This document shows positions 4,204 through 27,739 of a stretch of 32,000 nucleotides of DNA, piece by piece. The stretch is from positions 2,656 to 34,655 of the forward strand of contig NZ_JAECZA010000316.1 of the NCBI RefSeq assembly GCF_016056275.1, read 5' to 3'. This DNA comes from Dendronalium phyllosphericum CENA369 (GTDB taxonomy: Bacteria > Cyanobacteriota > Cyanobacteriia > Cyanobacteriales > Nostocaceae). Each line of letters starts with the position of its first letter. The stretch's first letter is position 1. Under the pieces are notes generated by a model. The model did not search any database. It was given only the letters and a program-made list of their open reading frames with translations, and was not told the origin of the DNA. Made by a program: the position numbers and the translations under genes.

Positions 4204-4773
4204 ATGAAAATAAACCGCTTCGGTCGAGCAGAAATCCTTACCCCCGACCAAATTAATCTCCTATTTACCGAGGGGTTTGTCAACCCACGCGATCGGGCTT
4301 TGTTTGGCGTGTGCCTTTATGCTGCCTGCCGGATCAATGAAGCCTGCACTTTGGCACTAAAAGATGTGTTTGGCAGCAACGGTGTCAGAGGCGTGTTAGT
4401 GCTGCGTAGTGTCAACACCAAAGGCAAGCGGGACACAAGGGAAATTCAAGTGCATCCCAAGCTTAGGGAATATTTAGAAGAGTACAACCCGAACCGCCGC
4501 AAGGAGTTCTTGTTTCCGGGGCGGCATGGGTTGGGACACATCCACAAGGTCAGTGCTGATAAAATCCTTAGAGATACCTGTGTGCGGCTGGGCATTGAGG
4601 GGGTTAGTACACACAGCTTCAGGAGGACTGCGTTAACCAGGATGAGCGATGCTGGGATACCGTTGCGCCACATTCAGGAGATATCGGGACATCGGACTTT
4701 GGCAGCTTTGGAGCGTTATTTGGGTGTAACCGAAAAGCAGAAGCAAAACGCGATCTCTGCTTTGGATTTTTGA
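4204..4773 (+). CDS. tyrosine recombinase / site-specific integrase, catalytic domain only (about 190 aa)
   Basis: Catalytic signature in order: Arg in AACRINEA, Lys in NTKGKRDT, HSFRRT (HxxR), SGHRT (His), and LERYL (Tyr). ATG 4204 is preferred over the in-frame TTG 4174 in the ORF track. Confidence 0.85.
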   Translation: MKINRFGRAEILTPDQINLLFTEGFVNPRDRALFGVCLYAACRINEACTLALKDVFGSNGVRGVLVLRSVNTKGKRDTREIQVHPKLREYLEEYNPNRRKEFLFPGRHGLGHIHKVSADKILRDTCVRLGIEGVSTHSFRRTALTRMSDAGIPLRHIQEISGHRTLAALERYLGVTEKQKQNAISALDF

Positions 4774-8934: not shown

Positions 8935-11900
8935 TTACCTATACTTTAGTTTCCTGAGACGTGCCAAAGCACTTACTACTGGAGGGTCTTTGACATCTTC
9001 AGGAATAATTACCTTGTCGTCAGGTTGAATACCACAAACATCAAAATCATGTTCCCCTATTTGCCATGCTGGCCGAATAAATATTTGCTTTTTCAGAATT
9101 CCAAGTTCTGTGAAGAAGTTTGCGCTAGAACCATCTTGAGATACACAGCCAGGAGTAAGAATATAAAAACCTAACTTTTCAAACATATCTATAAATTGGT
9201 CAAGATTCCTAGAATCTCTTGGATTCATAGTGTTAATCCGATACGTGAGGATAAATTGTGAGTCACTAGAAGCTTTTAGCCAGTCAGGATTCATTCCAAT
9301 AACTACGCGATAAGCTGCTGGATTGTCAGCATCGATTCCAGTAATAATAGATACTCTGATTTTTTCCTCAACATCTTCGTCTCCAATGTCTTTCCTCCAC
9401 TGATAAAAAATTTTCTTGCTTGCATTCTCATCTTGGAACAAAAGTGCAAGCTCTAAAAGTGGGAGATTACGATTATTTGGGATCAATCCGAACCCTGTTC
9501 CACTCCAACTAGCTTTATCCCAAAGATGAATATCAAGCAAGGAGAAGACCTTACGTTCGCGGTGTTTTAGGTGATCGACACTCTTGAGTTCAGGCGGAGG
9601 CTCACCGTGTCCTGGCTTGGGTGAAAATACATTAGCTCGTTCTTCAGAGATATTTTGAACTGTTTCATTGTTCCAGGCATTTGTTCGTTGAGGCGGAAAG
9701 TGCTTATCACTGTCGCTCAATTTCCAGTCCATAAGTTGCAGTTTTGGACTTTTACCCAAGATATTCCAAACTGCAATAGCTACGTTTGTAAAATCAAGTG
9801 CGCGAGAAAAAGCCAGTTCATCTTGTAAAAGTCCTTTAAAATACTGTTCCGGGTTTGATACAAACGCTATCTTAAAAATTACTCGAATAATTAATTCAGC
9901 CAGCGTTTTGCCTAATGATTCAGAATTAAGGTCTGCTATGTAAGATTCATTGACAGAATGTTTTACTTCTATGAGAGTTTCAAGAGTTTCTCCACCTTCC
10001 TCTTTAATGTGAAAATCAATAACGTTAGCAACAGAACCCGATGATACTATTTGAAATCTAATATTTGGTTGATGAGGGAATAATTGCGAATCAAGACTTG
10101 TTGCCAGAAAAGCTTCAAATGCAGCAAGAATTGACTCCGCAATAAACAGCGATCTACTATTATTTAAAACTTCAGCAACTACGTTGCAGCCAAGAACTTG
10201 TGAGCGGAGTTCTACTGTACCCTCTGCTAAAAATTCTGGTAGTTCTGGTAGGTCATGACTTGCTGGTTGTGCTATCCAATCATTAAAAAACTTACGTACA
10301 CTCGCCTCATCTTCCTCCTCTGGAATCCAACCCTCAGAACGAAGATAATCTTCATAACCTAGTGCGTACAACGATGCCATGAATGAATGATGAAACCCAA
10401 GTTCTTCGAGAACTGCTGGCAAAAACTCTAAACACTGCAAATCCTTAAGGGCAGTTTTAAGAAGAAGAATCCCAAGTACCGCATCTTGAGTTTCCCTCTC
10501 TTTAATAAATTTCTCTTTAGCTTCTTCATTGAGTCCAATTGCTTGTGCAATAACTGTAGAGGTTTCAATCCAAGCGAGTGTGATTGGAATCCGCCCTAAT
10601 TGTAATTCGAGCCAGACAAGACGTTGTAGACAGGCAAAGGCTTGAATAGTAATTGTGCTGTTTTCCCAATACTCATTAAAAGCTTGGGATGCTGCTAGGA
10701 GCATATTGGAACGCGCAGCCCACAGTAAGCCTATCGACTCATAAGCACTTGCACATAGAGATAGTGCAGCAATTAACTCACCATGACACTCACGCATAGC
10801 TAAGTTATGCTGCGCTCGACCAAGAAGATGAATTGCTTCGTAACGGTTTCCGCCAAGAAGTTTTTGCCTTCCTCGTGTCAAAAGCATACGTCCTGAAGTT
10901 GCTTTACTCTCGCGTTGTTGAGAGAGTATAAGTACAGCTTCAAAAAGTTCATCGAAGCCAGGATCATCAGGCAAATATTTACCGAGTTCCATGAGAATCT
11001 CGATCAATGGAGCTACGGGAAAGTTGACTAAACCTTCGCCCTCTGCAAATACCTTGCGAAATTCCTCAAGTATCCTTTTCAACTCAGCAGGTTCATGTCT
11101 GGACTCACTTAGATCCATTAGTAACTCAATGGATCTTGCTTGTAAGGCAGTGCTTGGTCTATCTTGATCAGCCTGGAGACGCTGTAATTCAGTATGTAAA
11201 GTTTTGGTTCGTGCTTCTAGCTTTGCATCGTAGGCTTCAAGTTGTGACCGTTGAACGGTTGTCCACAGAAGTTGCCATAGATTAGCTAATTTTTCAATAT
11301 CTGTGACTTGGCTGCTTTCAATTGCTAGACGCTCAACATCGTCGTAAATGCGGTTAAACGTGTGAAAGTCATCATGCCACCAATAAGCAGTCCATGCTTT
11401 GGCGTAAGCACACCGAAGCTTTTGCTGATGCATTCCATATTGTTCGGCTATACGCTCGGCTCGTGCAAAACGTCCCTCAACCTCTACACGTGGTAATTCA
11501 AGTTCACGTGATAGAATAGCTGCCTCAAGACAATCCTCAACAAGTTGATACTCGACACCTTGATAACGAATAGGATCTTTTATCTGCGTCTCTAGTTCTT
11601 TCAATTCAGCTTCACGAGATGTGTCTAAAGCCCCCTTTTTAACAGCTGGCGTAAGAGGCAAATTGATTTTAAGAGTTTCTACAGCTAGATTTTCTCGCTT
11701 GTTCTGAAACACCTTATCGAGTATCCAAGTTCTATCTAGAACTCGTACATAAATGTTGTACTGTTTTCTCAGTTCATCTTCAATGTTGGCTCGATCTTTA
11801 TCTTTGATATATCGACTACTGATGAAATAAATTAAAGTGTAGCTACGCTGCGTTTCTACAATTCCTTGGACATCAGAACGAACTTTTGAACGCCACTGTT

Positions 11901-12273
11901 GTTTTGCACTGACGGCAAATGCCCAACGTTCTGAGGCAGCTTCACGCCCAACTCCCTCATACCAGCGAAGTGAAACAGCATCGGATACAGGGTAGGTTTC
12001 AGAGTCTACCTTGCTGTCTCCTCCTCCAGTGGGGCCTGTTTGCGGTAAAAGGTTAGGACAAAGCTCTTTTTCAGCTAATCTGCGGCAGAAATGTTCAAAA
12101 TCCTTTTCTTGGCTACGGCTAGTCAATGTTTCTAAGTGATATTCCAAAAAGTTTCGATCTAGCAACGGCTCCCCAACTACTTGCGTATCGGAGAAAAGAT
12201 AAGGTCGCCGTGCCCTCATAAAATCCGAAGGGCGGAACGTTGCTGACTCAGGTTGCTGACGTTTTTCAACCAT
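8935..12273 (-). CDS. large (1112 aa) protein: N-terminal restriction-endonuclease-like (Mrr/PD-(D/E)xK-like) domain, long helical TPR-like middle, unknown C-terminal domain
   Basis: The ORF is long and uninterrupted. FEHFCRRLAEKEL..TGPTGGGDSKVD..WAFAVSAKQQW..YTLIYFISSRYI resembles the Mrr-type E..D..(E/Q/S)xK core. The middle is helical and repeat-like (for example GNRYEAIHLLGRAQHNLAMRECHGELIAALSLCASAYESIG). I found no convincing Walker A. Confidence 0.6.
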   Translation of the reverse strand: MVEKRQQPESATFRPSDFMRARRPYLFSDTQVVGEPLLDRNFLEYHLETLTSRSQEKDFEHFCRRLAEKELCPNLLPQTGPTGGGDSKVDSETYPVSDAVSLRWYEGVGREAASERWAFAVSAKQQWRSKVRSDVQGIVETQRSYTLIYFISSRYIKDKDRANIEDELRKQYNIYVRVLDRTWILDKVFQNKRENLAVETLKINLPLTPAVKKGALDTSREAELKELETQIKDPIRYQGVEYQLVEDCLEAAILSRELELPRVEVEGRFARAERIAEQYGMHQQKLRCAYAKAWTAYWWHDDFHTFNRIYDDVERLAIESSQVTDIEKLANLWQLLWTTVQRSQLEAYDAKLEARTKTLHTELQRLQADQDRPSTALQARSIELLMDLSESRHEPAELKRILEEFRKVFAEGEGLVNFPVAPLIEILMELGKYLPDDPGFDELFEAVLILSQQRESKATSGRMLLTRGRQKLLGGNRYEAIHLLGRAQHNLAMRECHGELIAALSLCASAYESIGLLWAARSNMLLAASQAFNEYWENSTITIQAFACLQRLVWLELQLGRIPITLAWIETSTVIAQAIGLNEEAKEKFIKERETQDAVLGILLLKTALKDLQCLEFLPAVLEELGFHHSFMASLYALGYEDYLRSEGWIPEEEDEASVRKFFNDWIAQPASHDLPELPEFLAEGTVELRSQVLGCNVVAEVLNNSRSLFIAESILAAFEAFLATSLDSQLFPHQPNIRFQIVSSGSVANVIDFHIKEEGGETLETLIEVKHSVNESYIADLNSESLGKTLAELIIRVIFKIAFVSNPEQYFKGLLQDELAFSRALDFTNVAIAVWNILGKSPKLQLMDWKLSDSDKHFPPQRTNAWNNETVQNISEERANVFSPKPGHGEPPPELKSVDHLKHRERKVFSLLDIHLWDKASWSGTGFGLIPNNRNLPLLELALLFQDENASKKIFYQWRKDIGDEDVEEKIRVSIITGIDADNPAAYRVVIGMNPDWLKASSDSQFILTYRINTMNPRDSRNLDQFIDMFEKLGFYILTPGCVSQDGSSANFFTELGILKKQIFIRPAWQIGEHDFDVCGIQPDDKVIIPEDVKDPPVVSALARLRKLKYR

Positions 12274-15399: not shown

Positions 15400-17550
15400 C
15401 TACAGCCTATTCACAATATTTCCATTAAACCAGGCAATCTTCTTTAAGTCATGACATAACCATTCATAAGCTAGCTCAGTTGCAGAGTTTGGTTTGAATA
15501 CATCTAGTACTTCTGAATTTATAGAAGCGTAAAGCCATGTTGATGCTTCTTTCCTTAGTGATAACAGTTGACTGTTCAAAACAGAAATAGAATAATCACA
15601 GCCTTTTGGAAATAAATTTTCTTTTGTGGGAAAAAAGCACAAGTCTACGCAGCTTTGTTTGCCTTTCGGCAGTGGTTCCCAATAAGATATTATCCAAGGT
15701 TGGTTATTATATGAATTTGGTAAAATAATTTTTCCTACAAAACGCGCTGGCAGCGTTACTGCCGTTGTCAGCCTGGGCGCAAATTTGGAAAAATACGTAT
15801 TAACTAGTTGCTGGTATCCCTCAATAGCACCTTCGTAAACAGCTTTTGCACGAACTAATAATTGTAGTTCGGAGTAGCTCTCCCATATCCATCCATCTGT
15901 AATATCAATATCTGGTTCAGGCCACGGAGAATGCAACTCGGCTTCTCCATCTTGGCGGAGGCTGTTAACTTGAGCTATAAGGTGCTTAAGACCGTAGCAG
16001 TATTCGTACTCGTTTACCCAAGAAGGAATATTCAATGATGACTTAGAAAGACATTCTTCAATTTCACTCAGAGAAATAGGACTATAATTTAACTCCCCAC
16101 GACTAGTAACTATAAGTGCGGTCTGCCAAACAATTTCTTTAAAAATTGATCCGTGGTTGACTGGCAGCATACGCTTTTCCAATAATTGAGATAGTGAACT
16201 ACTAAGCTCATTAAGCGTCAAATTCCAAGCCAAAGCTGATTTATGATTAGCCACCTTAACGCCTGTTAATCCAAACCAATTGGATAATAATTCTGGCTCA
16301 GAAAATGGCGATATAACAATATCAGGCAGATTCTCATCACCACAGTACCAACCAGTTGTCAGATACATTTCGTCTGCGTCAACACCAATTGGTAAAAGCG
16401 TATTATCCTCACGTACTGGTGCAATTAACTTAGAAAGTGGAGCAATACCATCTATCCATGCCTGCATCGCTGTTCGTATTCTTCGCCCAAATTCCAGTGA
16501 TAATGGTAAAGGAACTGATTGTGTGACGTTCCATCTTGTTATTGCCAGCTCTTCCTTGACAATCTCTGAAATAAATGCAGGATGTTTCTGGACTAGTGGC
16601 ACAAGTACCTTTGATACTTGCTCATAACTGTAATTACCAACAAAGATAGCTAGCGGATAGCGCCAACGTTCGAGCCGCTGTGGCTCAAGTTTGAGATCAT
16701 TGGGGTCAATGATGCCAGCAGCTAAACTTTGCGCTGCAAACCATTGTGTTAGAATTGGCAGCGGGAAACCAATAGTTCCTGCATTCTCAACAACTAACCC
16801 CGTATTTAAAAGCATCTGAAATTCTGATGTTGTTCCGCCGATGTCAGTCTTAGAAACTACACCTATACTACAGTCAGTAGCTTGAGCAGCAAGGCATAGT
16901 AGTAATTGCTCAACATTAGAGTTGTTTGCTCTTGCTTTTTCGAGGGAACGTTCAACAAGATTTGACAGTAAATCCCCAGGCGAGGTTGATGCTATTGTGC
17001 CTTGGTTTTTTAAATAGACACCAAGCAATACTGCAAATAAAGGTCGGCGAATAGCATGACGGATGGACTCCGGCCATTGGGAAGAAACATATGGCGGAAT
17101 TGGTTGTTTTGAAATTCTTTCTACAAGAGCATATGCTTCATTCTCTGTAAGTGGAGGAACTTGAACAGCCTCTTCAACTTTAGATAAAGCGGGGATAGCT
17201 CTGCTAGTAATTACTAGGGTAGTTTTTTCCCATGTATTAACAAGAATGCGAGCTTCATTAAGTAAATGTGCTGCTAAGGCGCTTCCTGCTTCGTCAGCCC
17301 CGTCAATGATTGCGGTAACACCTTGTGAGAAGGACTGTCCTAGCTTGCTGATTTCTTCTTCTATAGTTTTTTGTAACTGTCCTGCCACCTGCTGCGCTTT
17401 TAAATCCACAGGTATAGGAGCTGCGGGATTTTTGCGGGCCTGTTTAATTGCATCTTGGAAGAGGCGTTGTGCAAGCAATGACTTACCTACACCAAAATCA
17501 CCGATTAGTATTATTAAAGGGTTTTCATCATTAGGTTGAAACTTAGACAA
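15400..17550 (-). CDS. NACHT-type STAND NTPase (NLR-like) with non-repetitive C-terminal region; frame stays open upstream to 17715
   Basis: Walker A is LIGDFGVGKS and the NACHT-style Walker B is AIIDGADEAG. The ~450-aa C-terminal region has no recognisable repeats. The only start is TTG 17550, and the 55 codons upstream are stop-free and in frame with the 149-aa ORF. Confidence 0.8.
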   Translation of the reverse strand: MSKFQPNDENPLIILIGDFGVGKSLLAQRLFQDAIKQARKNPAAPIPVDLKAQQVAGQLQKTIEEEISKLGQSFSQGVTAIIDGADEAGSALAAHLLNEARILVNTWEKTTLVITSRAIPALSKVEEAVQVPPLTENEAYALVERISKQPIPPYVSSQWPESIRHAIRRPLFAVLLGVYLKNQGTIASTSPGDLLSNLVERSLEKARANNSNVEQLLLCLAAQATDCSIGVVSKTDIGGTTSEFQMLLNTGLVVENAGTIGFPLPILTQWFAAQSLAAGIIDPNDLKLEPQRLERWRYPLAIFVGNYSYEQVSKVLVPLVQKHPAFISEIVKEELAITRWNVTQSVPLPLSLEFGRRIRTAMQAWIDGIAPLSKLIAPVREDNTLLPIGVDADEMYLTTGWYCGDENLPDIVISPFSEPELLSNWFGLTGVKVANHKSALAWNLTLNELSSSLSQLLEKRMLPVNHGSIFKEIVWQTALIVTSRGELNYSPISLSEIEECLSKSSLNIPSWVNEYEYCYGLKHLIAQVNSLRQDGEAELHSPWPEPDIDITDGWIWESYSELQLLVRAKAVYEGAIEGYQQLVNTYFSKFAPRLTTAVTLPARFVGKIILPNSYNNQPWIISYWEPLPKGKQSCVDLCFFPTKENLFPKGCDYSISVLNSQLLSLRKEASTWLYASINSEVLDVFKPNSATELAYEWLCHDLKKIAWFNGNIVNRL

Positions 17551-17715
17551 AGGTGCGCCAATAGATGTATCATTGGCAAGTTCAATCGCTTGGCTGCGAG
17601 TTACACCAGCAGCTTGCCACAGAGATATACACCGACTTATGGATAGTCGATCTAGTTCTTCTAATCTATCAGTGAGGGGATTATACTTTACCCGATCCTG
17701 GTCGGGTGGCTTCAG

Positions 17716-17718
17716 TCA
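17716..17718 (-). other. in-frame TGA between the 149-aa module and the NACHT ORF (candidate readthrough site or nonsense mutation)
   Basis: 17716 minus 17548 is 168, a multiple of 3. None of the 55 intervening triplets is a stop. The next base after TGA is C. Confidence 0.9.
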
Positions 17719-18165
17719 CAAGTTTATAGTTTGATTTTGGATGTTAATACTAGACTTTATTCCTTGAGCTAAGTTCACAACTTTTTCAATGCTATTCGTG
17801 ATCGCGCTTTGGTAATTACTCTGCTTTTCTCTAAGTGCTTTATCCAGTTCAGAATTATGCTTAGTAGCTTCTTTTACATCATTTCCCAAAGCTTCTACTG
17901 CCATCTTAATTTCTTGGTCTGCTTGTGCTGCTTTCTTCACCTCTTCTACTAAGACAGCTTCACCAATATCTTCTTGTCCATCAGGTGGTAGCGCTAAAGG
18001 TTCCACTACTGCTTGTAAAGCATTTGCTGTCTCAGGGAACTTTCTTTTCAAAAGTTGCATTACCTTTTCCGCAGCTTGATCTAAAGCTTTTTCTGTTGAC
18101 CAATCAATAATTTTCCCTGATAGCCAAATGGCAAACGCGATCGCTCCAGTAGTCAGTGGCTCCAT
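17716..18165 (-). CDS. 149-aa helical module protein with hydrophobic N-terminal helix and N/Q/I-rich tail; paralog of 24481-24894
   Basis: MEPLTTGAIAFAIWLSGKIIDWS.. and EDIGEAVLVEEVKKAA..EIKMAVEALGNDV are shared with the other copy. GAGGTAGCAC lies before the ATG. The tail is GIKSSINIQNQTINL. Confidence 0.7.
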   Translation of the reverse strand: MEPLTTGAIAFAIWLSGKIIDWSTEKALDQAAEKVMQLLKRKFPETANALQAVVEPLALPPDGQEDIGEAVLVEEVKKAAQADQEIKMAVEALGNDVKEATKHNSELDKALREKQSNYQSAITNSIEKVVNLAQGIKSSINIQNQTINL

Positions 18166-18287: not shown

Positions 18288-18962
18288 CTAATTGCCAAAC
18301 CTGATAGTCCAGGAGTCATCTCGCAAATCTGGCGGGAGTTCTGCGGGAAACTCATCAGTAGCATCTATCATGACACTAAAGTGTTGCGAGGCTTGATTTC
18401 CTAACCTTTTGATTTCACGCAACCACTTTGCCAGGTTCTTACCCATAACATCAGGATTAGAGGTATCGAGAATCAGCAGACGGACTCCGCTAGTAGCCAT
18501 CCGTCGCAACCGTTTCTCAATTTGCTTAGATGTAATTGATGAGGGTCTAATGCGGTAGGGGTCAGCAACATCGAAACTCATGACAGCTACACTGTATCGA
18601 CCAACTTTTACGTGATCACCATTATCAATACTGCCCATGAAAATGAAAACTTCGTGGTGAGGGGGGCAGCATTCGTGATCGACAACGTTCAAAACGTTAG
18701 TGGCCATTTCACTGTTTAGATATTGATGAGTTGTTGACTCATCCAGCCATAAAGTTCCAAGCCCATCTTTTTCTGGGTAAATGAATTCACCTTTGTCGGG
18801 GCGAAACTCTCCAACATTAATTAAGGCATACCCTTTGCCAAACTCCCGCTTCATCTGATGTATCTGCTTAAACGCCTTCGCCACAAAACTTGTATCTTCA
18901 AGCACTTGTGAGCAGAAGTTACCTAAAGCTTGCTGCAAAATTGAATTGGCATCCACAATCAA
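18288..18962 (-). CDS. hypothetical protein (224 aa), no recognisable motifs
   Basis: Long ORF on the same strand, 122 nt upstream of the 149-aa/NACHT locus. Only a TTG start is available at the 5' end; the next Met is residue 36. Confidence 0.5.
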   Translation of the reverse strand: MIVDANSILQQALGNFCSQVLEDTSFVAKAFKQIHQMKREFGKGYALINVGEFRPDKGEFIYPEKDGLGTLWLDESTTHQYLNSEMATNVLNVVDHECCPPHHEVFIFMGSIDNGDHVKVGRYSVAVMSFDVADPYRIRPSSITSKQIEKRLRRMATSGVRLLILDTSNPDVMGKNLAKWLREIKRLGNQASQHFSVMIDATDEFPAELPPDLRDDSWTIRFGN

Positions 18963-19194
18963 TTGGCTGTACTTTAAGTTGATGATAATAACTCATTCTA
19001 GTATGTTTAATTGGCAGAAATTTCAGCGATTTTGTTCCACCCAGCACTAACTCAAGCAACTCTTAACTTCTGAGGCGGCGTAGCGGAGTGTCTGCCGCTG
19101 CCTGCAACCATCGCAGGTGGCTCAAAGAGTTGATTTGTGGCAGTGGCTCCCCCCGCAAACTTTGAGCTTGCTAGGTTTTGAGTTGCGCCATCGC

Positions 19195-21453
19195 CTAAAG
19201 GGATCTCCCTCTACTCTGTCTTCTTTCTTGTTGCCGCTTTTCTTCTATTATTTGTTGCAATACGCGCTCTGCTTCACGCCAAAAGCCGAGGTCAAGAGAG
19301 TCTACTGACCCTACATTAATCGGTGAATACTCAAGCTCACCTGACTGGTTTCGGTTGACCGCCACTCGAAATATTTCACCTCGTTCATCATGGGTAAACA
19401 CCAATTCTCTACCCTGTTTTTCTAAAGTTGCTCGTTTGAATCTCAGGCTATTTGAGCCACTTTCTCTTAATTGCCAATTGATTAATTCAACAGCAACAGG
19501 CACAGCGAAGGCTAAATATTCGGACTGTAACTGCTGTTTTTGGTCAAGTTGCTGTGATGGTTGTTCTTGCTTTGATGCCAATTGATTGTTAGCGATTAGA
19601 ACTAATGCTTTAGCTTCATCAGCAGTCCATCCGGCTGGACTGCCTAGTATAATTTCTTCAACTTCTTCGACTGACTTATTATCTAATAGCGCCAAGGTAG
19701 CAATTTCTTTGTCTCGGTCAGTCACTAATAAGTTTTGTAAGTCGGTGCTGTAATACTTATATAACTCGGCTCTTAGTTCCTCTTTTAGTTTTGGTTGATC
19801 TGTGGTTAGAGTTGAAGCTTTATTAAGAGCGTTCGCATCCACTGCTTTTTGTGATCTGTGGAGTTGCTCCAAATAAACAATCACTGCAAAGAGGTCATCG
19901 AATGTGGTTTTTCCGGCTTTAAGTTGCTGCCGATATTGAGATAGTTGTTCGGTTAATTGTGGTAACGTTTCAATCAAGGCTGACTCAACTACTGATTGTT
20001 CAATAAAGTTAGCGATTGCATCCACTGCTTTTTGTAATGAAAGTTGTTGCTCCAAATCAGTAATTGCCGTTGACAAGTCGTTTAATGCGATTCTTCCTTC
20101 TTTTAGCTGCTGCTGATGCCCGTGTAATTGTTCTAGAAATTGTGGCAACCCTTCAACCAAGGCTGACTCAACTGCTCTTGAGTCAATATAGTTAACGATT
20201 GCATCCACTGCTTTTTGTGATATAAGTTGTTGCTCCTGTTGAGCAATCACCGCTCTTAGGTCGTCTAATGTAGTTCTTTCTTCTTTTAATTGCTGCTGAT
20301 ACAGTAACAATTGTTCTGTTAATTCTGTTAATTTTGGTAATGTTTCAACTAAGGCTGACTCAACTGCTCTTGAGTCAATATAGTCAACAATTGCATCCAC
20401 TGCTTTTTGTGATGTAAGTTGTTGCTCCTGTTGAGCAATCACTGCTCTTAGGTCGTCGAATGTAGTTCTTTCTGCTTTTAACTGCTGCTGATAAAGTGAC
20501 AGTTGTTCTGTTAATTCTGTTAATTGTGGTAACGTTTCAACTAAGACTGACTCAACTGCTGACTGTTCAATATAGTTAACGATCACATTTATGAGTTCTT
20601 GGTTGTCAACTGCTCGCCCGACATGATTATGCAACAGTTGCTCAATTCGCTCATCATCCCGTTGTGGCTGATAGTCAATTTCTTTATGTTTTTGCAGTCC
20701 AGGCCAAGTATAGGCAGGCCCCAAAGATGTACCGCTAAATTTCTGCCCGTTCCACGAGTAAGAGATGCCTTTACTTTTGCCGTTGCGTGTTACACCGTGA
20801 CGAACTTCTACGCCTTGTAGTTGCAGTCGTTCAATAACTTGGGGCATGATCGGTCTATTTACCGTGGCGCGGTCGATGAGTTCAATTAGTTGTTGTTTGA
20901 TGGGACGTTCTTGTGGCGAGAGGCGATCGCCTTTAATGTATTCAAGCTGCTCTCGCTCTAGTCGTCTTTGTTGCCCAATACTTGGGTTGCGGGTTAATTT
21001 ATCGTGGCTGCTGTGAGTTTGTTGTAACCCGTAATCCCGTTCTAGCTGCCGGATAATACTTTCACTGCGTTTGTAATCCCAGCTATCATGAACTATCTTG
21101 CCGTTGTCCAAACGGATGCGACTAGCGCAGATATGGATGTGGTCGTGCTGAGTGTTGCTGTGTCTGTAGACTACATACTGGTTGCTGTCAAAACCCATCT
21201 CTTCAAGGTAGCGTTGAGCGATTTCGTTCCAGGTTGCGTCATCGAGTCGTTCGCCTTGGGGTAGAGATAGTGATGCGTGGTAAACTACTCTGTCGGCTTC
21301 ATAGTTCAATTGACGCGAGATTTTGAATTCAACAGCCAGGGCGCGGGGGTTTCTGCCGCCCATGTTGCCACCAATAAGTTTGGCTCCTTCTTGAGATTGG
21401 AGATAATTGAGCAGTCCGCGAAATCCTCGCCCCTTAGTCTGGTTGCCAATCAT
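19195..21453 (-). CDS. MOB relaxase (MobA/VirD2-type relaxase domain) with repeat-containing coiled-coil C-terminal half
   Basis: GRGFRGLLNYL carries the catalytic Tyr context, with YHASLSLP and the histidine triad HSNTQHDHIHICASRI. ATG 21453 (MIGNQTKGRG) is preferred; the ORF track uses TTG 21492. Confidence 0.9.
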   Translation of the reverse strand: MIGNQTKGRGFRGLLNYLQSQEGAKLIGGNMGGRNPRALAVEFKISRQLNYEADRVVYHASLSLPQGERLDDATWNEIAQRYLEEMGFDSNQYVVYRHSNTQHDHIHICASRIRLDNGKIVHDSWDYKRSESIIRQLERDYGLQQTHSSHDKLTRNPSIGQQRRLEREQLEYIKGDRLSPQERPIKQQLIELIDRATVNRPIMPQVIERLQLQGVEVRHGVTRNGKSKGISYSWNGQKFSGTSLGPAYTWPGLQKHKEIDYQPQRDDERIEQLLHNHVGRAVDNQELINVIVNYIEQSAVESVLVETLPQLTELTEQLSLYQQQLKAERTTFDDLRAVIAQQEQQLTSQKAVDAIVDYIDSRAVESALVETLPKLTELTEQLLLYQQQLKEERTTLDDLRAVIAQQEQQLISQKAVDAIVNYIDSRAVESALVEGLPQFLEQLHGHQQQLKEGRIALNDLSTAITDLEQQLSLQKAVDAIANFIEQSVVESALIETLPQLTEQLSQYRQQLKAGKTTFDDLFAVIVYLEQLHRSQKAVDANALNKASTLTTDQPKLKEELRAELYKYYSTDLQNLLVTDRDKEIATLALLDNKSVEEVEEIILGSPAGWTADEAKALVLIANNQLASKQEQPSQQLDQKQQLQSEYLAFAVPVAVELINWQLRESGSNSLRFKRATLEKQGRELVFTHDERGEIFRVAVNRNQSGELEYSPINVGSVDSLDLGFWREAERVLQQIIEEKRQQERRQSRGRSL
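19847..20613 (-). repeat. four in-frame tandem coding repeats (210, 192, 183, 183 nt) inside the relaxase gene
   Basis: The marker GCATCCACTGC recurs at 19835, 20018, 20201 and 20393. The protein units are AVD(A/N)..VESALVETLP.LTEQL..YQQQLK....DDL.AVI..QEQQL.SQK. Confidence 0.85.
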
Positions 21454-21832
21454 CGGTTTCCTCATCCTCCTCAGATATGAAGGTTTTGGCAATTTCTCGT
21501 TGGCAGTGCCGCAACAGTTCTAGTAGTTCGTTTAATAGTTCTGGATCTGCTGGCGGTGGCAGTTGCATTTTGATGGCAGTGTTGGCAACTTTGGCCAATT
21601 GGTTGATGTTGTTGCCGATGCGGGAAAGTTCCAAGTAGGTGGCTACTGTAACTCTGCCCAGTCGCGGCGGCGGTGGTGGAATTGGTCGCAGTAACATACA
21701 ACGTCTTGTCAGTTCTGCCAAGCTCATACTCGCGTCTTCTGCTTTTGACCGAACCATCTCATATTCAATTGGGCTGAACCGCGCTTGCAGTCTTTTGGTG
21801 CGGATGAGTGACGACGAAGAACGCTTGGTCAT
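21434..21832 (-). CDS. mobC: MobC-family relaxosome accessory protein
   Basis: RFSPIEYEMVRSKAEDASMSLAELTRRC (RHH-like) and IGNNINQLAKVAN are typical of MobC. It lies immediately upstream of, and overlaps, the relaxase gene. Confidence 0.85.
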   Translation of the reverse strand: MTKRSSSSLIRTKRLQARFSPIEYEMVRSKAEDASMSLAELTRRCMLLRPIPPPPPRLGRVTVATYLELSRIGNNINQLAKVANTAIKMQLPPPADPELLNELLELLRHCQREIAKTFISEEDEETDDWQPD

Positions 21833-21872
21833 AATCTCAAATCAGACAATGTGCAATTTTGGCGAGGGGTTT

Positions 21873-21897
21873 CCAAAGGGGATACTTCCCCCTTTGG
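21873..21897. promoter_or_regulatory. 9-bp-stem inverted repeat in the mobC / leader-operon divergent region (candidate oriT or operator element)
   Basis: CCAAAGGGG-ATACTTC-CCCCTTTGG lies 41-65 nt upstream of the mobC start. A direct repeat AGCGCAGC (21914, 21929) is nearby in a GC-rich patch of an otherwise AT-rich intergenic region. Confidence 0.35.
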
Positions 21898-22284
21898 CAA
21901 GCCTGCCGAGTCGAGCGCAGCGAGACAAAGCGCAGCTTTAGGCATGGCTTGCTCCTTAGCAAGGGCGTGGGGTAGGAACGAGAGACAGGGGGCAACCAGC
22001 AACGTGTGGTCACAGCGCGTAGAGAGCGGCTACTGCCACTAAAACAAGCTAGTCATTACAAGCTTTGGTAGCATGGTGAACTATTAATAATTGTTTTATG
22101 AATTTTTTTGATAAACTCTTCGTGAGTTATCTTACACGTTCTCAGTGATTACCGTTCAGTTAATCAAGTTAATATCTATTGCTGATTATTAATTAATTGT
22201 TGCATTGATAATAACCTGTCTTTAGATAGATGCTTGGTGTAAAAGTAAAGTTTTAAACATAACGAAACTCTGTTTTTTACTTCT

Positions 22285-22812
22285 GTGACTAAAGATAGTA
22301 TTCCTAAGTCAAAAATTCCAGAGGCTCTTGATGCTCTCCGCGCTTTGGGTGCTAAGGAATTAGATGATATCCCGGCACGAGAGGCTATTAGAAAAATGCG
22401 CCGTCAAATTGAACGGGTGCTACGTCTTGGCTATAGCTACGAGGAAGTGTCAGAAACTTTAGCTGGTTTAGATATCAATATCAGTGCAGAACGTATCCGT
22501 TATCTACTTAGCGATATCAAAAGGTCTACGCGCAAAAAATCAGTAGCTGAGAACCTTCAGGATAATACTGATACTCAAGTTGTTAATGAGCAGAATTTAG
22601 GCGAGAATTCAGCGACAGAAAATAGCAGTAGTCAGTCTGTTAAAAAATCTTCAGCTAAATCGCAAGCAAAATCAAAATCTGCAAAGTCAGTCTCAACAAA
22701 TTCTCAAACTAATACAAATACTAAAAATTTGGCTGAGGCAGAGTCAAATGGGTATCAAAATACCTATCGCCCTGCTTTTATACCTCAAATCATTTCAGAT
22801 GAGGATTTATAA
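22285..22812 (+). CDS. putative DNA-binding protein with S/K/N-rich low-complexity tail (leader-operon gene 1)
   Basis: The N-terminal half has an HTH-like segment (GYSYEEVSETLAGLDINISAERIRYLL). The C-terminal half is low complexity. The start is GTG. It is transcribed divergently from mobC. Confidence 0.5.
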   Translation: MTKDSIPKSKIPEALDALRALGAKELDDIPAREAIRKMRRQIERVLRLGYSYEEVSETLAGLDINISAERIRYLLSDIKRSTRKKSVAENLQDNTDTQVVNEQNLGENSATENSSSQSVKKSSAKSQAKSKSAKSVSTNSQTNTNTKNLAEAESNGYQNTYRPAFIPQIISDEDL

Positions 22813-23589
22813 ATGGCGGTTAAATCAAAATCATCAGCTGATTCTGCTAAACAAAAACCTACTAATCAGCCAAAGACTGTTGGGCGTTTAGTTTTGGTGA
22901 CTGGCGATAAGGGCGGCACTGGTAAAAGTGTGGTGGCAAGAATTCTCCTCGATATTTACCGCCACAGAAATATCAACTGTATTGCTTACGAATGCGACCA
23001 GTCAAATCCTCAGCTTTATCGCCACTATAATAAGGTGCAACCTGGGGTGTCAGGGTTGAAACTTAATCAGCGCGGTGGTGCTGATGCTTTGCAGGATGAT
23101 TTGAAGCGTTTATCTCCTAAAGTATCTCTGGTGGATCTCCCTGCTGGGGCTGCGGAATATTTTGAGTCGGTGGCTAAGGATATTTTTCTGTTTCAAAATG
23201 CCCAGCGTTTGGGTTATCGCATCACTATGGTATCGGTTTTAGGACGAGTCAAGGATAGTGTTTTGCAGTTAAAACGCTTAGTGGATTTTTGCGGCGACCG
23301 TGTTGATTATGTGGTTGTGAAAAATCTTTACTGGGGTGATGAACACAAGTTTACTCGCTATAACAATTCTAAGGTCAAACAATCTGTAGAAGAATTGGGG
23401 GCAATTGAACTGTTATTGCCTGAGTTATACGACGATATTTTTGATTTGATTGACTCAAAAGACCTTACCTTCAGGGAGGCGTTAGAGCATGAGGATTTTA
23501 GTTTGAGTAATCAGTCGAGAGTTTATGGCTGGATTGATGCGGTTGAGTCTGAGTTTGCTAAGGCTGCTGTGCAATTGGGGTTAGAGTAA
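22813..23589 (+). CDS. ParA/MinD-like P-loop ATPase (TraL-like position in a mobilization leader operon)
   Basis: Deviant Walker A is VTGDKGGTGKSVVA, with VSLVDLPAG. The ATG abuts the upstream stop. Confidence 0.7.
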   Translation: MAVKSKSSADSAKQKPTNQPKTVGRLVLVTGDKGGTGKSVVARILLDIYRHRNINCIAYECDQSNPQLYRHYNKVQPGVSGLKLNQRGGADALQDDLKRLSPKVSLVDLPAGAAEYFESVAKDIFLFQNAQRLGYRITMVSVLGRVKDSVLQLKRLVDFCGDRVDYVVVKNLYWGDEHKFTRYNNSKVKQSVEELGAIELLLPELYDDIFDLIDSKDLTFREALEHEDFSLSNQSRVYGWIDAVESEFAKAAVQLGLE

Positions 23590-24326
23590 TGGCTGTGAGT
23601 AATGGTAAAGGTAATGGTGGAGTATCACATTTAGATAGATTACTGTCAGAAAAGTCAGCAGAATTTCAAGCGAAAGTGTTGCGGTTTGCGCTTGATTCTG
23701 GCATGAAACAGGATGATCCAGCATTTCGATTAGTGCAGTACATCGGCTATTTGGCACAGTTGACAGAAACTGCACCAAATGATTGGAAGTTATTATTTGA
23801 AAATTTACAGGCGGAACTGAACCAATGGAGCCAACTGACAGCAGAGCAACTGAAGACTCAGGCAGACCACACGGAGAACATCAAAAATCTAGCGACGAGT
23901 TGCAATCAGCTAGGGATAGCCTTGAGCGCATTAAATCTAACGTCGCAGCAACAACTGGAGCTATTGCAGAACTTAACCAAACTCTCCGGGAATTGGAACA
24001 ATCCCTCGCCAACCCCAACAGAGAAATTAATCGCACCGCTACGAGAAGAATTGAAAGAAGTCAAGGAGATGATATCTCTCATGAACCAAAAAGGCGTGGA
24101 ATCAGACGCTAAAAGTTGGGCGAGAGCTTTTATTATCCGGCTTTTTTCTCCGGTCACTTTTTTTATTCTGTTTTTGATTTATTCAAATCTTTTTCCGCTC
24201 AGAGTTCCTTATGAAACTACGCAGTCTTTGGAGAAGATTTTGGAGCAGACTGGTTGGACTAATACCAAGTTGCAACGGGTTGAGAAACGTTTGGGGACAG
24301 ATCCTAATCTTAGACGGCGACGGTAA
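23589..24326 (+). CDS. coiled-coil protein with C-terminal transmembrane segment (leader-operon gene 3)
   Basis: Stop and start overlap as TAATG. The hydrophobic segment is FIIRLFSPVTFFILFLIYSNLF and the tail is basic (RRRR). Confidence 0.55.
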   Translation: MAVSNGKGNGGVSHLDRLLSEKSAEFQAKVLRFALDSGMKQDDPAFRLVQYIGYLAQLTETAPNDWKLLFENLQAELNQWSQLTAEQLKTQADHTENIKNLATSCNQLGIALSALNLTSQQQLELLQNLTKLSGNWNNPSPTPTEKLIAPLREELKEVKEMISLMNQKGVESDAKSWARAFIIRLFSPVTFFILFLIYSNLFPLRVPYETTQSLEKILEQTGWTNTKLQRVEKRLGTDPNLRRRR

Positions 24327-24480: not shown

Positions 24481-24894
24481 ATGGAGCCACTAACTGCGGG
24501 TGCGATCGCTTTTACAAGCTGGGTGGTAGGTAAACTGATTGACTGGTCAACAGACAAAACTTTTGATATAGCCTCACAACGGCTGATGCAACTCCTTGTT
24601 GAAAAATCGCCAGACACAGCCAAAAGCTTAACAGCAGCAGCAGAGCGTGCCGCTTTAGCGCCTAATGAACGAGAAGATATTGGGGAAGCAGTCTTGGTAG
24701 AAGAAGTGTCCAAGGCAGCAGCCAAAGATGCAGAAATTAAAGCAGCAGTAGAAGCTTTAGGAAATGATGTCAATCAAGCTGTAAACGAGAATCGTGAAGT
24801 TGAAAAGCGTTTGACAACTGTGATTGAGAATTGGAAAGGGATAAGCATAAAGGGCGGAATTACTACAATCAATAATCCTACCCTTAACTTTTGA
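24481..24894 (+). CDS. 137-aa helical module protein, paralog of 17716-18165
   Basis: MEPLTAGAIAFTSWVVGKLIDWS.. and EDIGEAVLVEEVSKAA..EIKAAVEALGNDV match the other copy. GAGGTAGTAC lies before the ATG. The tail is GISIKGGITTINNPTLNF. Confidence 0.7.
   Translation: MEPLTAGAIAFTSWVVGKLIDWSTDKTFDIASQRLMQLLVEKSPDTAKSLTAAAERAALAPNEREDIGEAVLVEEVSKAAAKDAEIKAAVEALGNDVNQAVNENREVEKRLTTVIENWKGISIKGGITTINNPTLNF
24892..24894 (+). other. in-frame TGA between the 137-aa module and the NB-ARC ORF
   Basis: 24481 and 24988 are in the same frame. The 31 intervening codons have no stop and no ATG/GTG/TTG. The next base after TGA is C. Confidence 0.9.
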
Positions 24895-24987
24895 CTACAG
24901 TCGTCCTCTGGGGAAAGGACAAAGTTAAATCCCCCAAATAATGTTCCTCGTAGTGGTGTAGTTAAGTTCATCGGACGAGAATCAGAA

Positions 24988-26013
24988 TTGGAGCAACTAC
25001 ACACGCAATTGCAGCAAGTAAACTTAGTTTCTATTTCTGCGATAGAAGGCATGGGAGGAGTGGGCAAAACAGAACTCGCTATTCAGTACACTCAGCAGTA
25101 TAAATCGTCTTATGAAGGAGGTATCTGCTGGCTATTTGCTAGAGAATTTAACGTAGGTACTCAGGTTATCGGGTTTGCCCAATCTCAACTGAACCTGAAA
25201 ATTCCAGAAGGATTAGAATTGTATGACCAAGTAGCTTTTTGCTGGCGAAACTGGTGTGAAGGTGATGTTCTGCTGGTATTGGATGATGTGGTTAACTATC
25301 GCCGAGATATCGAACCATACTTGCCGTCTGCTGCATTCACCCGCTTCAAGATAGTGATGACAACTCGGCAAAAGTTTAGTCCACCCGTTCAGTCGCTGTC
25401 TCTAGATGTGCTGTCTCCAGAACAATCTCTAGAATTGTTGACAGTTTTAATTGGGAAAGAACGAGTTCAGCAGGACTTTGAGATAGCCAACACACTTTGT
25501 CATTGGTTAGAGTATCTACCTCTGGGAATCGAACTTGTTGGGCGCTATTTGCTTGAGCGAAAGGAGCTATCGCTTTTCACACTGCTGTTCCGGCTGCAAG
25601 AGAAAGCCTTGGAGCGGCAAGCAATTAGATACGCCGCTCTTAAGCTAAATGAGGAAAATAGTACTTCAACAGGTAGACGGGGGGCAGAAGCTGCGTTTGA
25701 GTTGAGTTGGGTTGAGCTAGATAACAACAGTCAGCACTTAGGTAAGTTATTGAGTGTGTTTGCATCTGCACCAATTCCCTGGTACTTAGCTGAGTCAGCC
25801 GAGCGAAACTATTGTGAAAACTCTAATGGTGGTAACAAGTTTGATGTTGAGGAAATGGAGGAAGCAAGAGCTAAGTTATTAAGATTTCACTTGCTACAAC
25901 TTTTGCAGCAGCAGGAGCAAATCTACCGTCTACATTCGCTAATTCGTGAGTTCTTTAGAAGCAAGTTAGAAGGAGAACCTGATGTTACAACTTCGGACTC
26001 AAAAGCAAATTGA
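24988..26013 (+). CDS. NB-ARC-type STAND NTPase domain (NLR-like); coding sequence evidently begins upstream of the TTG, and the C-terminus is frameshifted into the TPR ORF
   Basis: GMGGVGKTELA (P-loop), VLLVLDDV (Walker B), KIVMTTRQ, and YLPLGIELVGRYL (GLPL-like). The conserved pre-P-loop motif FIGRESELEQL straddles or precedes the TTG start. Confidence 0.8.
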   Translation: MEQLHTQLQQVNLVSISAIEGMGGVGKTELAIQYTQQYKSSYEGGICWLFAREFNVGTQVIGFAQSQLNLKIPEGLELYDQVAFCWRNWCEGDVLLVLDDVVNYRRDIEPYLPSAAFTRFKIVMTTRQKFSPPVQSLSLDVLSPEQSLELLTVLIGKERVQQDFEIANTLCHWLEYLPLGIELVGRYLLERKELSLFTLLFRLQEKALERQAIRYAALKLNEENSTSTGRRGAEAAFELSWVELDNNSQHLGKLLSVFASAPIPWYLAESAERNYCENSNGGNKFDVEEMEEARAKLLRFHLLQLLQQQEQIYRLHSLIREFFRSKLEGEPDVTTSDSKAN

Positions 26014-27739
26014 AGCAAAGAAATTAAAACGTGCTGTGGCTGCTGCAATGGTAGCAATTTCTCAAAAAATACCTGATTCACCAACTCAAGAGGATATTAA
26101 ATTAGTAAAAGATGCAATACCACATTTAGCGGAGGTGGCACAAAATCTAACTGATGTAGTTAGTGATCAAGATTTAATTTGGCCTTTTGTAGGCTTAGGT
26201 AAATTTTATCGGGGACAGAGTTTGTATGCGATCACACAAGCTTGGTGTGAGGAATGCGTAACAGTATTAAAATCCCGCCTTGGGAATGAACATCCTCATG
26301 TAGCAACTAGTCTGAATAATTTAGGAGAAGTCTATTGTTCTCAAGGACGTTACAGCGAAGCCGAACCTTTGCTCATGCAAGCTTTGGTGATGAGGAAACC
26401 CTTGCTAGGAGACGAACACCCAGATGTCGCAACTACTATGAACAATTTGGCATCTCTCTACAGTTCCCAAGGACGGTACACCGAAGCGGAACCTTTGCTC
26501 ATCAAAGCTTTGGCAACGTATAAACACCTGTTGGGGGATAAACACCCTAATGTCGCCATTAGCCTGAATAATTTGGCAAAACTTTACAATTCCCAAGGAC
26601 GGTACACCGAAGCGGAACCTTTGCTCATCGAAGCTTTGGCAACGTATAAACACCGATTTGGGGATGAACACCTTAATGTCGCCATTAGCCTGAGTAATTT
26701 GGCATCTCTCTACAGTTCCCAAGGAAGGTACACCAAAGCCGAACCTTTGTATATCAAAGCTTTGGAAATGACAAAACGCCTGCTGGGGGATGAACACCTT
26801 GATGTCGCATCTAGTATGAACTGTTTGGCTGGACTTTACGACTCTCAGGGACGCTACACTGAAGCTGAACCCTTGTACGTTGAGGCTTTGGTGATGAGAA
26901 AACGCCTGCTGGGGGATGAACACCCTGATGTTGCATCTAGTATGAACAATTTGGCATTTCTCTACAGTTCCCAAGGACGGTACACCAAAGCCGAACCTTT
27001 GTATATCAAAGCTTTGGAAATGACAAAACGTCTGTTGGGGGATGAACACCCTCATGTAGCACAAAGCCTGAATAATTTGGCATCTCTCTACCATTCTCAA
27101 GGACTTTACAGCGAAGCCGAACCTTTGTTCATCCAAGCTTTGGTGATGAGGAAACGCTTGCTGGGAGATAAACACCCTGATACTATATCTAGCCTGAATA
27201 ATTTAGCATTTATCTACCATTCTCAAAGACGTTACAGCGAAGCTGAACCTTTGTTCGTCCTAGCTTTGGTGATGAGAAAACGCCTGTTGGGGGATGAACA
27301 CCCTGATGTTGCAACTAGTCTGAATAATTTGGGAGAACTCTATTATTTTCAAGGACGTTACAGCGAAGCCGAACCTTTGCTCATCGAAGCTTTGGTGATG
27401 TGGAAACGCTTGCTGGGAGATGAACACCCTCATGTGGCACAAAGCCTGAGCAATTTAGCAGAACTCTACCGTTCCCAAAGACGCTATAACGAAGCCGAAC
27501 CTTTATTCATCCAAGCTTTAGCGATGAAAAAACGTTTGCTGGGAGATAAACACCCAGATATTGCATCTAGCCTGAACAATTTGGCAGGACTCTACTATTT
27601 TTTAGGACGTTACAGTGAAGCCGAATTTTTGTTAATCGAGACTTTGGAGATTTTGGAACAAGAGTTAGGAGCAAATCATCCCAATATAATCACGACGCAA
27701 AATAATTTGGAATCTTTGCGTCAACGTCGTCAGTCTTAG
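25982..27739 (+). CDS. TPR-repeat (kinesin-light-chain-like TPR_10/12) sensor region of the NLR, encoded in the +1 frame relative to the NB-ARC ORF
   Basis: Eleven ~42-aa repeats of the form HP.VA.SLNNLA.LY.SQGRY.EAEPL...AL.M.KRLLGDE. The frame is open from 25970 and overlaps the NB-ARC ORF end (26013). Confidence 0.8.
   Translation: MLQLRTQKQIEAKKLKRAVAAAMVAISQKIPDSPTQEDIKLVKDAIPHLAEVAQNLTDVVSDQDLIWPFVGLGKFYRGQSLYAITQAWCEECVTVLKSRLGNEHPHVATSLNNLGEVYCSQGRYSEAEPLLMQALVMRKPLLGDEHPDVATTMNNLASLYSSQGRYTEAEPLLIKALATYKHLLGDKHPNVAISLNNLAKLYNSQGRYTEAEPLLIEALATYKHRFGDEHLNVAISLSNLASLYSSQGRYTKAEPLYIKALEMTKRLLGDEHLDVASSMNCLAGLYDSQGRYTEAEPLYVEALVMRKRLLGDEHPDVASSMNNLAFLYSSQGRYTKAEPLYIKALEMTKRLLGDEHPHVAQSLNNLASLYHSQGLYSEAEPLFIQALVMRKRLLGDKHPDTISSLNNLAFIYHSQRRYSEAEPLFVLALVMRKRLLGDEHPDVATSLNNLGELYYFQGRYSEAEPLLIEALVMWKRLLGDEHPHVAQSLSNLAELYRSQRRYNEAEPLFIQALAMKKRLLGDKHPDIASSLNNLAGLYYFLGRYSEAEFLLIETLEILEQELGANHPNIITTQNNLESLRQRRQS
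26288..27676 (+). repeat. about 11 tandem 126-bp coding repeats (TPR units)
   Basis: The periodic DNA and protein repeat is seen directly. It also generates long spurious antisense ORFs. Confidence 0.85.

Follow-up and report, generated by a model that had tools for sequence, protein, structure and literature searches.

The window analysed here is a stretch of 32,000 nucleotides (nt) from Dendronalium phyllosphericum CENA369 (contig NZ_JAECZA010000316.1, positions 2,656 to 34,655). It harbors two loci, one on each strand, in which the open reading frame (ORF) of a small, putatively Bell-like effector module ends at a UGA stop and continues beyond it in the same frame into an NLR. The adjacent collinear NLR is a NACHT protein at the minus locus and an NB-ARC protein with TPR repeats at the plus locus. 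A sequence-only reading of the window had proposed that both stops lie in a recoding-like context, consisting of UGA followed by C, an 8-nt spacer and a hairpin of 6 or 5 base pairs (bp), and every coordinate of this arrangement was confirmed. The features of the two loci are the following:

17716..18165, minus strand: Bell-like effector module of 149 residues (I8752_35925), starting MEPLT and ending at TGA 17718-17716; matches P0001 at 100% identity
17719..17787, minus strand: predicted amyloid-type (BASS-like) motif EKVVNLAQGIKSSINIQNQTINL, C-terminus of the minus module
17715..17718, minus strand: candidate UGA-C recoding site, TGA 17718-17716 with the +4 C at 17715, preceded by AAC UUG
17708..17715, minus strand: 8-nt spacer CUGAAGCC, reading C UGAAGCC
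17690..17707, minus strand: hairpin ACCCGA-CCAGGA-UCGGGU, arms 17707-17702 and 17695-17690; 6 bp here, 5 bp in the family
17674..17689, minus strand: conserved 3' tract AAAGUAUAAUCCCCUC, whose C-run can pair with the loop GGA (candidate pseudoknot, weak here, 3 bp)
15400..17715, minus strand: in-frame extension of 771 codons, comprising a linker, a NACHT NTPase and a long C-terminal region
24481..24894, plus strand: Bell-like effector module of 137 residues (I8752_35960), ending at TGA 24892-24894; P0018, 51% identical to the minus module
24826..24891, plus strand: predicted amyloid-type motif ENWKGISIKGGITTINNPTLNF, C-terminus of the plus module
24892..24895, plus strand: candidate UGA-C recoding site, TGA 24892-24894 with the +4 C at 24895, reading UGA CUA and preceded by AAC UUU
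24895..24902, plus strand: 8-nt spacer CUACAGUC, identical to the family consensus spacer
24903..24920, plus strand: hairpin GUCCU-CUGGGGAA-AGGAC, arms 24903-24907 and 24916-24920; 5 bp
24921..24936, plus strand: conserved 3' tract AAAGUUAAAUCCCCCA, in which UCCCC (24930-24934) is complementary to the loop GGGGA (24910-24914) (candidate pseudoknot)
24895..26013, plus strand: in-frame extension of 372 codons, comprising a linker and an NB-ARC domain (E = 5e-13)
25982..27739, plus strand: TPR repeat ORF of 585 residues in the +1 frame; its first 32 nt overlap the NB-ARC ORF

Relative to the family consensus stem, GCCCG/CGGGU, the plus hairpin carries two compensatory pair changes. The covariance model of the element (R1) scores the minus junction at 53.8 bits and the plus junction at 75.6 bits; both window rows were in the alignment used to build R1, so these matches arise by construction. 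Within the window TGA-C occurs only at the two junctions, and the other TGA stops precede A or T. An alternative genetic code is ruled out because TGA terminates other genes of the window. A pattern search allowing up to 3 mismatches, from which both window copies themselves deviate by more than 3, found no further consensus-like copy of the element in the window, and no suppressor or selenocysteine (Sec) tRNA was found there. The whole-window Rfam scan at the gathering threshold was empty, and E-value scans of both junctions gave chance-level matches only and no selenocysteine insertion sequence (SECIS).

The reading frames downstream of the stops offer few places to start. In the minus extension, the first in-frame ATG, GTG or TTG is codon 56 (TTG at 17550) and Walker A is at codon 72; the NACHT match (E = 1.7e-5) scores just under the Pfam cut-off. 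In the plus extension, FIGR falls at codon 25, followed by Walker A at codon 52, and the first in-frame start is a TTG at codon 32, inside the conserved N-terminal motif. The NB-ARC ORF terminates at TGA 26011-26013, and the ATG of the TPR ORF (25982) is preceded by AAGGAGAA (region 25969-26013). This TPR ORF is the set of sensor repeats of the same plus-locus NLR, separated by a frame change. The split could be that of a decaying copy, a genuine two-gene arrangement or a second recoding site; L022, a close relative, has the same NB-ARC tail and no intact TPR ORF.

Conservation of the junction in related loci

The module was used to retrieve 80 genomic loci, 79 of them analysable, so that together with the two window loci 81 junctions were read. 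At 36 of the 81 the module ends at TGA and is followed by an in-frame ORF of 45-1317 codons, which encodes an NLR in most cases. These loci are termed Kind A (34 retrieved loci and the two window loci; L061 is also Kind A, cut at a contig end). The +4 base is C in 32/36, and the codon after the stop is CUA in 17/36, the commonest, or CUG in 11/36, together 28/36. A near-invariant string follows the stop: CUACAGUC GCCCG AACGGGAA CGGGU AAAGUYAAAUCCCCCA. The spacer is 8 nt long in 35 of the 36 aligned loci. Walker A is present in 30/36 ORFs, and three ORFs of only 45-165 codons come from decayed loci. In 25 of the 36 loci no in-frame ATG, GTG or TTG occurs before codon 25, and the FVGR motif of the NTPase falls at codon 25 in the 18 FVGR-type loci.

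The sister loci have another organization. In Kind B/C (about 37 loci) the module ends in ENWQGINIKGGxxTIxNxTFNFGSK and is terminated by TGA, TAA or TAG. The NLR is a separate gene that starts through an ATGA overlap or past a spacer and opens with the motif once more, MTSENWQGINIKGG. The arrangement is precisely that of the Bell/BASS-NLR amyloid-signalling pairs of Dyrka et al. When the NLR N-terminus is compared with the module C-terminus, the best 14-residue window scores have a median of 13.5 and a maximum of 24 at the UGA loci, against a median of 54 in Kind B/C. Unlike in the canonical pair, the repeated motif at the N-terminus of the adjacent NLR is absent at the window loci; each motif occurs once, with no second copy elsewhere in the window.

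Scanning metagenomes by the hairpin pattern alone gave 24 matches, and 22 of these have a TGA before the stem, at a distance of exactly 8 nt. Most of the 22 junctions run in frame into an NLR, the rest being cut by contig ends or decayed; the remaining two matches are unrelated, about the chance expectation. The upstream modules in the metagenome matches belong to several Bell-like families. Such a survey of related loci had been proposed as a check by the sequence-only reading, and it bears out conservation of TGA-C. With all junctions pooled (about 58, from filamentous cyanobacteria), the stop is UGA in 58/58 and the +4 base C in 52/58, and the element never occurs with TAA or TAG. Strains with such loci include Calothrix PCC 7103, Fischerella muscicola PCC 73103, Nostoc linckia z4, Anabaena azotica FACHB-119 and Scytonema tolypothrichoides VB-61278. 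Over 740 kb, the covariance model finds one copy per Kind A locus and none elsewhere, except for an added divergent copy in L065 (4965-5420). This copy has UGA-C, an 8-nt spacer, the stem GCCGG/CCGGU and an in-frame NB-ARC, and lies behind a second Bell-like module. The L065 contig is binned as Chloroflexaceae, so either the cassette occurs outside cyanobacteria or the contig is mis-binned.

In three of the metagenome contigs (L086, minus strand, element 831-893; L088; L098) the UGA-C/spacer/hairpin cassette links a putative serine esterase to a NACHT protein. The esterase carries THSLGG and gives weak DUF676/PGAP1 matches, and its NACHT partner has a C-terminal multi-pass membrane region. Therefore the cassette is not restricted to Bell-like or amyloid-bearing effectors.

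A few loci show how such systems degenerate. L042 (4404-4460) reads TAA, UAU, UGA, and its spacer is altered and its NLR frame-shifted; in L091 (element 4638-4700, minus strand) a second in-frame stop, TAG, follows one codon past the UGA. Both are decayed. L095 has a broken Walker A, and L007, L026, L091 and L095 are clearly broken.

The 5-bp stem is supported by covariation. In the alignment of the 36 module-found loci (A2) 96-97% of its cells are paired, and 3 of the 5 pairs show compensatory changes. In a larger alignment of 56 sequences (A3), which were fitted to the model and include 22 rows found by a pattern that fixes the stem, pairing reaches about 99%. A CG pair becomes UA in 6 sequences, including the plus window copy, and GC, UA and CG variants also occur, while the closing pair alternates between G-U and G-C. 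None of 500 shuffles reaches the observed values, and when the partner is slid by one column pairing is halved, to 50% or less.

The stretch after the stop is conserved as RNA. The sequence-only reading had aligned the two post-stop peptides, LKPPDQDRVKYNP and LQSSSGERTKLNP, and had taken the downstream peptide to be under selection. The alignment is correct as given; the claim of selection on the peptide does not hold. Codon-position conservation was computed on 18 loci of equal length, with the following identities at positions 1/2/3:

Codons +1 to +14 (element): 0.80/0.85/0.84
NLR codons 25-55: 0.63/0.69/0.43
Module end: 0.39/0.34/0.38

The element has no codon periodicity, whereas the NLR has a normal coding pattern. 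Three loci carry one extra nt in the loop (L008, 4391-4454; L059, 4431-4494; L045, 4397-4460), and in L045 the 3' tract has diverged. As a result of the other frame, L008 and L059 translate the AAAGUUAA..CCCCC tract as GTDKVNTPS instead of ERVKLNPPN. L008 has one nt fewer just past the C-run, which puts the NLR again in frame with the UGA, and in L059 the NLR is likewise in frame despite the extra loop nt. Selection thus acts on the RNA and, separately, on frame continuity, and L008 and L059 constitute a natural experiment that dissociates selection on RNA from selection on peptide. Given equal conservation at all codon positions and these frame variants, the conserved peptide is a by-product of the conserved RNA; what the loci conserve is an RNA element.

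The proposal that the two stops reflect selection rather than two accidents is thereby upheld in part. It stands for the stop, the +4 C, the spacer and the hairpin, which are kept across genera with covariation, and for the open frame; it falls for the post-stop peptide. Nor are the two loci recent gene-conversion copies of one pseudogene, an outcome the same reading had recognised as fatal to it: the stems differ compensatorily and the NTPases are of different types, NACHT and NB-ARC. The comparative evidence strongly supports the view that both TGAs are selected sites of a recoding type.

The effector modules and Bell/BASS-NLR pairs

The minus and plus modules are 51-55% identical, somewhat below the approximately 60 percent that had been estimated. 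The minus module is predicted to be all-helical, with a hydrophobic helix 1 after MEPLT and a disordered C-terminal tail. Its AlphaFold2 model has 6 helices, and the predicted local distance difference test (pLDDT) score is below 50 at residues 126-149. MEPLT and the hydrophobic helix 1 are kept in the module family (M1, P3, T5, G7, A8, I9), and Bell/Hell domains carry an N-terminal MEPIS motif (bioRxiv 10.1101/2024.11.07.622273). Neither module matches a family in Pfam or NCBIfam.

The C-terminal motifs of the modules are predicted to be of amyloid type (BASS-like). The plus motif ENWKGISIKGGITTINNPTLNF belongs to the same motif family that the sister loci carry in paired form; the NLR N-terminus of sister loci duplicates this family as ENWQGINIKGGxxxIxNxTFxF. 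Other modules end directly before the UGA in related motifs, for example INIQNQNISI and IENQTFNQTF.

All 42 close module homologues are stand-alone proteins of 108-177 residues. An exhaustive profile search of the module family returned 170 representatives, and among the 150 listed nearly all have 47-170 residues. Since the homologues stand alone, termination at this point is the conserved main outcome. Two fusions were observed: P0176 (909 residues), a rare constitutive fusion of a Bell-like module to NACHT that has neither the stop nor the LQSPERER linker, and P0159 (412 residues), in which a Bell-like module is joined to an unrelated C-terminal domain.

The relation to Bell/BASS-NLR gene pairs goes beyond what the sequence-only reading had considered. 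As in those pairs (bioRxiv 10.1101/2020.01.06.895854; 10.1101/2024.11.07.622273, Bab/Agp), the window loci encode a small effector, predicted to be helical, with a MEP-type hydrophobic N-terminal helix and a candidate C-terminal amyloid-type motif of about 20 residues. The effector likewise directly precedes a collinear NLR of the NACHT or NB-ARC/TPR type, and the hosts are filamentous cyanobacteria. In contrast to those pairs, the NLRs of the window have no motif copy and no start codon, and lie in frame behind a conserved UGA and an RNA element. Because the published Bell/BASS screen admitted only NLRs with a motif at their N-terminus (Dyrka et al. 2020, bioRxiv 10.1101/2020.01.06.895854), it would miss the UGA class. 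Stop codons or readthrough are unmentioned in the Bell/BASS papers (bioRxiv 10.1101/2020.01.06.895854; 10.1101/2024.11.07.622273), and a literature search on readthrough combined with cyanobacteria, NLR, Nostoc, Bell or antiphage systems found no relevant paper.

Proposed programmed readthrough and competing explanations

Each locus is probably one translational unit with programmed UGA readthrough, which would yield abundant free effector and a rare effector-NLR fusion. Most ribosomes would stop at UGA-C and release the small Bell-like effector, a helical protein of membrane-targeting type whose last approximately 20 residues would form the amyloid-type (BASS-like) motif. With the UGA in the A site, the RNA element, which starts 8 nt after the stop, would sit where mRNA enters the ribosome. 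This element, a GC hairpin of 5-6 bp followed by the AAAGUYAAAUCCCCC tract and possibly pseudoknotted, may tip the competition at the UGA from RF2 towards a near-cognate tRNA (Trp expected). The ribosomes that read on, a minority, would make effector-motif-linker-NLR, and the NLR, which has neither a start nor an amyloid motif of its own, would gain both via readthrough. Upon a trigger, oligomerization of the NLR may cluster the N-terminal motifs and nucleate the amyloid fold, which would convert the abundant free effector and lead to membrane damage and cell death. In such a scheme one gene would replace the two-gene Bell/NLR pair, with the efficiency of recoding setting the effector-to-sensor ratio.

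The anatomy of the junction resembles that of viral readthrough signals, such as MuLV gag-pol (UAG, 8-nt spacer and pseudoknot) and those of alphaviruses and plant viruses (UGA-CUA/CGG with a stem-loop; Firth et al. 2011, PMC3159437). The likenesses are a leaky UGA-C, mostly UGA-CUA, a structure 8 nt past the stop, nucleotide-level conservation after the stop with compensatory changes, and a set ratio of short and extended products with a common N-terminus, which is proposed here from sequence (PMC3159437). The same source mentions UGA readthrough in the coat protein/A1 of phage Qbeta. The viral cases differ in that they operate on eukaryotic ribosomes with eRF1, whereas the present genes are, from their sequence, bacterial cellular genes (RF2), and in that the stem of the window is much shorter, at 5-6 bp. 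Several hallmarks of readthrough are found together at these loci: a conserved stop context, an in-frame ORF that shows a coding signature and lacks a start of its own, and a covarying structure at fixed spacing.

The readthrough product would also resemble all-in-one HeLo/Bell-NLR proteins and plant CC-NLR resistosomes, being an NLR with an N-terminal membrane-targeting helical domain, and the constitutive Bell-NACHT fusion P0176 belongs to the present family. Unlike in those proteins, the fusion would here depend on recoding, with the free effector always in excess.

Several observations weigh against readthrough of a Bell-type effector as set out above. A Foldseek search of the AlphaFold2 model against PDB gave nothing under E = 1, and a profile search of PDB sequences was empty, so that Bell membership is not demonstrable by fold; the assignment draws on the N-terminal motif, the helical prediction and the gene context. 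The sequence-only reading had cautioned that short stems arise easily by chance, and the window hairpins indeed match dinucleotide shuffles in stability (z of -0.03 and -0.27). When the two window junctions and four homologues were folded as single sequences, the result was no better than shuffles, and thermodynamics alone is thus unsupportive. The basis for a stimulatory role is comparative, and 5-6 bp is short for a candidate stimulator on the bacterial ribosome. The second helix of the putative pseudoknot (loop GGGA with downstream UCCC) is paired in 90-92% with few compensatory changes, and can be called suggestive. An alternative outer helix that contains the stop, UUUGACU/AGUUAAA, also exists, paired in 78%; covariation is confined to 2 cells at 1 of 7 pairs. 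It was not adopted because it essentially does not covary and is incompatible with a ribosome on the stop. This helix (A2 columns 5-11 with 42-48, e.g., L037 4395-4434) appears in the minimum-free-energy fold of several copies, and might sequester the stop in untranslated mRNA or be coincidental. The NLR of the plus locus is split by the frame change and that copy may be decaying, and at the minus locus a NACHT protein of its own could be initiated at the TTG, 16 codons ahead of Walker A. Finally, the esterase loci have no obvious amyloid motif, and the supply of a motif is therefore not the whole rationale. A more general role of the cassette is likely, in which the fusion is kept rare and the effector abundant.

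Four other explanations were weighed. The most serious is that two proteins are made, with termination at the UGA and synthesis of the NLR by reinitiation near the stop or at a downstream GUG or UUG, the element being a coupling, pausing or stability signal. Bell and NLR are indeed separate, translationally coupled genes at the sister loci (this analysis; Dyrka et al.), the codon-56 TTG of the minus locus lies ahead of Walker A, and reinitiation at the codon right after the stop would keep the frame as well. That codon, however, is CUA in 17/36 and CUG in 11/36 and almost never a usable start, and the first canonical start is at or after codon 25 in 25 of the 36 loci. An NLR made in this way would have neither the effector nor the amyloid motif borne by all canonical partners, and active restoration of the frame after the +1 loop insertion also speaks against it; we regard this explanation as unlikely. 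It appears less probable still that the 45-nt segment is a DNA-level junction cassette, kept as a homology or recombination site for shuffling effectors onto NLR sensors. The element does join at least 4 Bell-like families and an esterase to NACHT, NB-ARC/TPR and APPLP-type NTPases, and conservation falls off sharply at both flanks. Yet the compensatory changes maintain pairing, which implies a structural constraint on the folded strand, and recombination leaves the invariant UGA, the +4 C, the fixed 8-nt spacing and the kept frame unexplained. A role in DNA-level recombination could exist in addition to readthrough.

Insertion of Sec, with the downstream hairpin acting as a bacterial SECIS, deserves very little credence. 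In its favour, a hairpin lies close behind the UGA, as in SECIS-directed recoding, and its apical loop has G residues about 16 nt from the UGA. No Sec-decoding trait (SelA/SelB) was found in Cyanobacteria (PMC1794560), and its machinery was not searched for directly in the present genomes. A Cys codon is found at the site in 0/58 junctions, homologues terminate there at genuine TAA or TAG stops, the position belongs to a linker rather than a redox centre, and no Rfam family matches, SECIS included. It is scarcely conceivable that the TGAs are inactivating mutations in once-fused Bell-NLR genes, even though NLR loci decay often, as the frame change between NB-ARC and TPR at the plus locus and the four clearly broken loci attest, and one true constitutive fusion (P0176, 909 residues) is known. 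About 58 loci across several orders share the stop codon, its position, its context and the RNA structure, and the ORFs flanking the stop are intact, with 400-1300 codons. Independent decay cannot yield some 58 identical stop contexts, and pseudogenization is therefore refuted as an explanation at the level of the class.

Among viruses of eukaryotes, it is established that RNA structure beyond the stop can stimulate programmed readthrough. In phage Qbeta, the bacterial ribosome reads UGA at low frequency, giving an extended protein that is required beside the short one. To our knowledge, no conserved structured downstream stimulator has been recognised as the readthrough signal of Qbeta, and bacterial readthrough is known essentially only as context-dependent leakiness of this kind. 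The cassette described here would share with Qbeta coat/A1 the readthrough of UGA on a bacterial ribosome; the Qbeta case differs in being a phage gene and not an immune one. The loci would bring programmed readthrough together with Bell/NLR signalling, each known by itself, and the comparative evidence for this is strong. If true, and as far as the literature searched shows, no conserved family of bacterial cellular genes with structure-stimulated programmed readthrough would have been described before. With about 60 cellular loci sharing such a structured signal, bacteria would offer a model of how mRNA structure competes with RF2. For prokaryotic immunity, it would represent an unrecognised architecture of NLR/amyloid signalling systems, one that suggests a way to hold a dangerous sensor-effector fusion rare while the effector is abundant. 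Such genes are now annotated as a small hypothetical protein and an N-terminally truncated NLR, and annotators would gain a simple rule for merging these pairs. The compact element may also serve as a tool for expressing two products in tunable amounts in cyanobacteria.

On balance, a wider proposal seems rather likely. Filamentous cyanobacteria may hold a portable recoding cassette (UGA-C, 8-nt spacer, GC hairpin/pseudoknot and 3' tract) that drives readthrough at a set frequency. By this means NLRs would make both free effector and effector-tagged sensor from one ORF, which would replace the duplicated amyloid motif and fix the stoichiometry.

Genes around the two loci

Near the NLR loci, a 1112-residue ORF on the minus strand (8935-12273) has no Pfam match. 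Between the two module-NLR loci lie a MobA/VirD2 relaxase (19195-21492), a small MobC-like ORF (21434-21832) and a ParA-like ATPase (22813-23589), and a Prim-Pol/DUF3987 replicase is found at 27957-30947. The plasmid-type gene regions (18288-24326 and 27957-30947) adjoin both module-NLR loci. The window is probably part of a plasmid or another mobile element.

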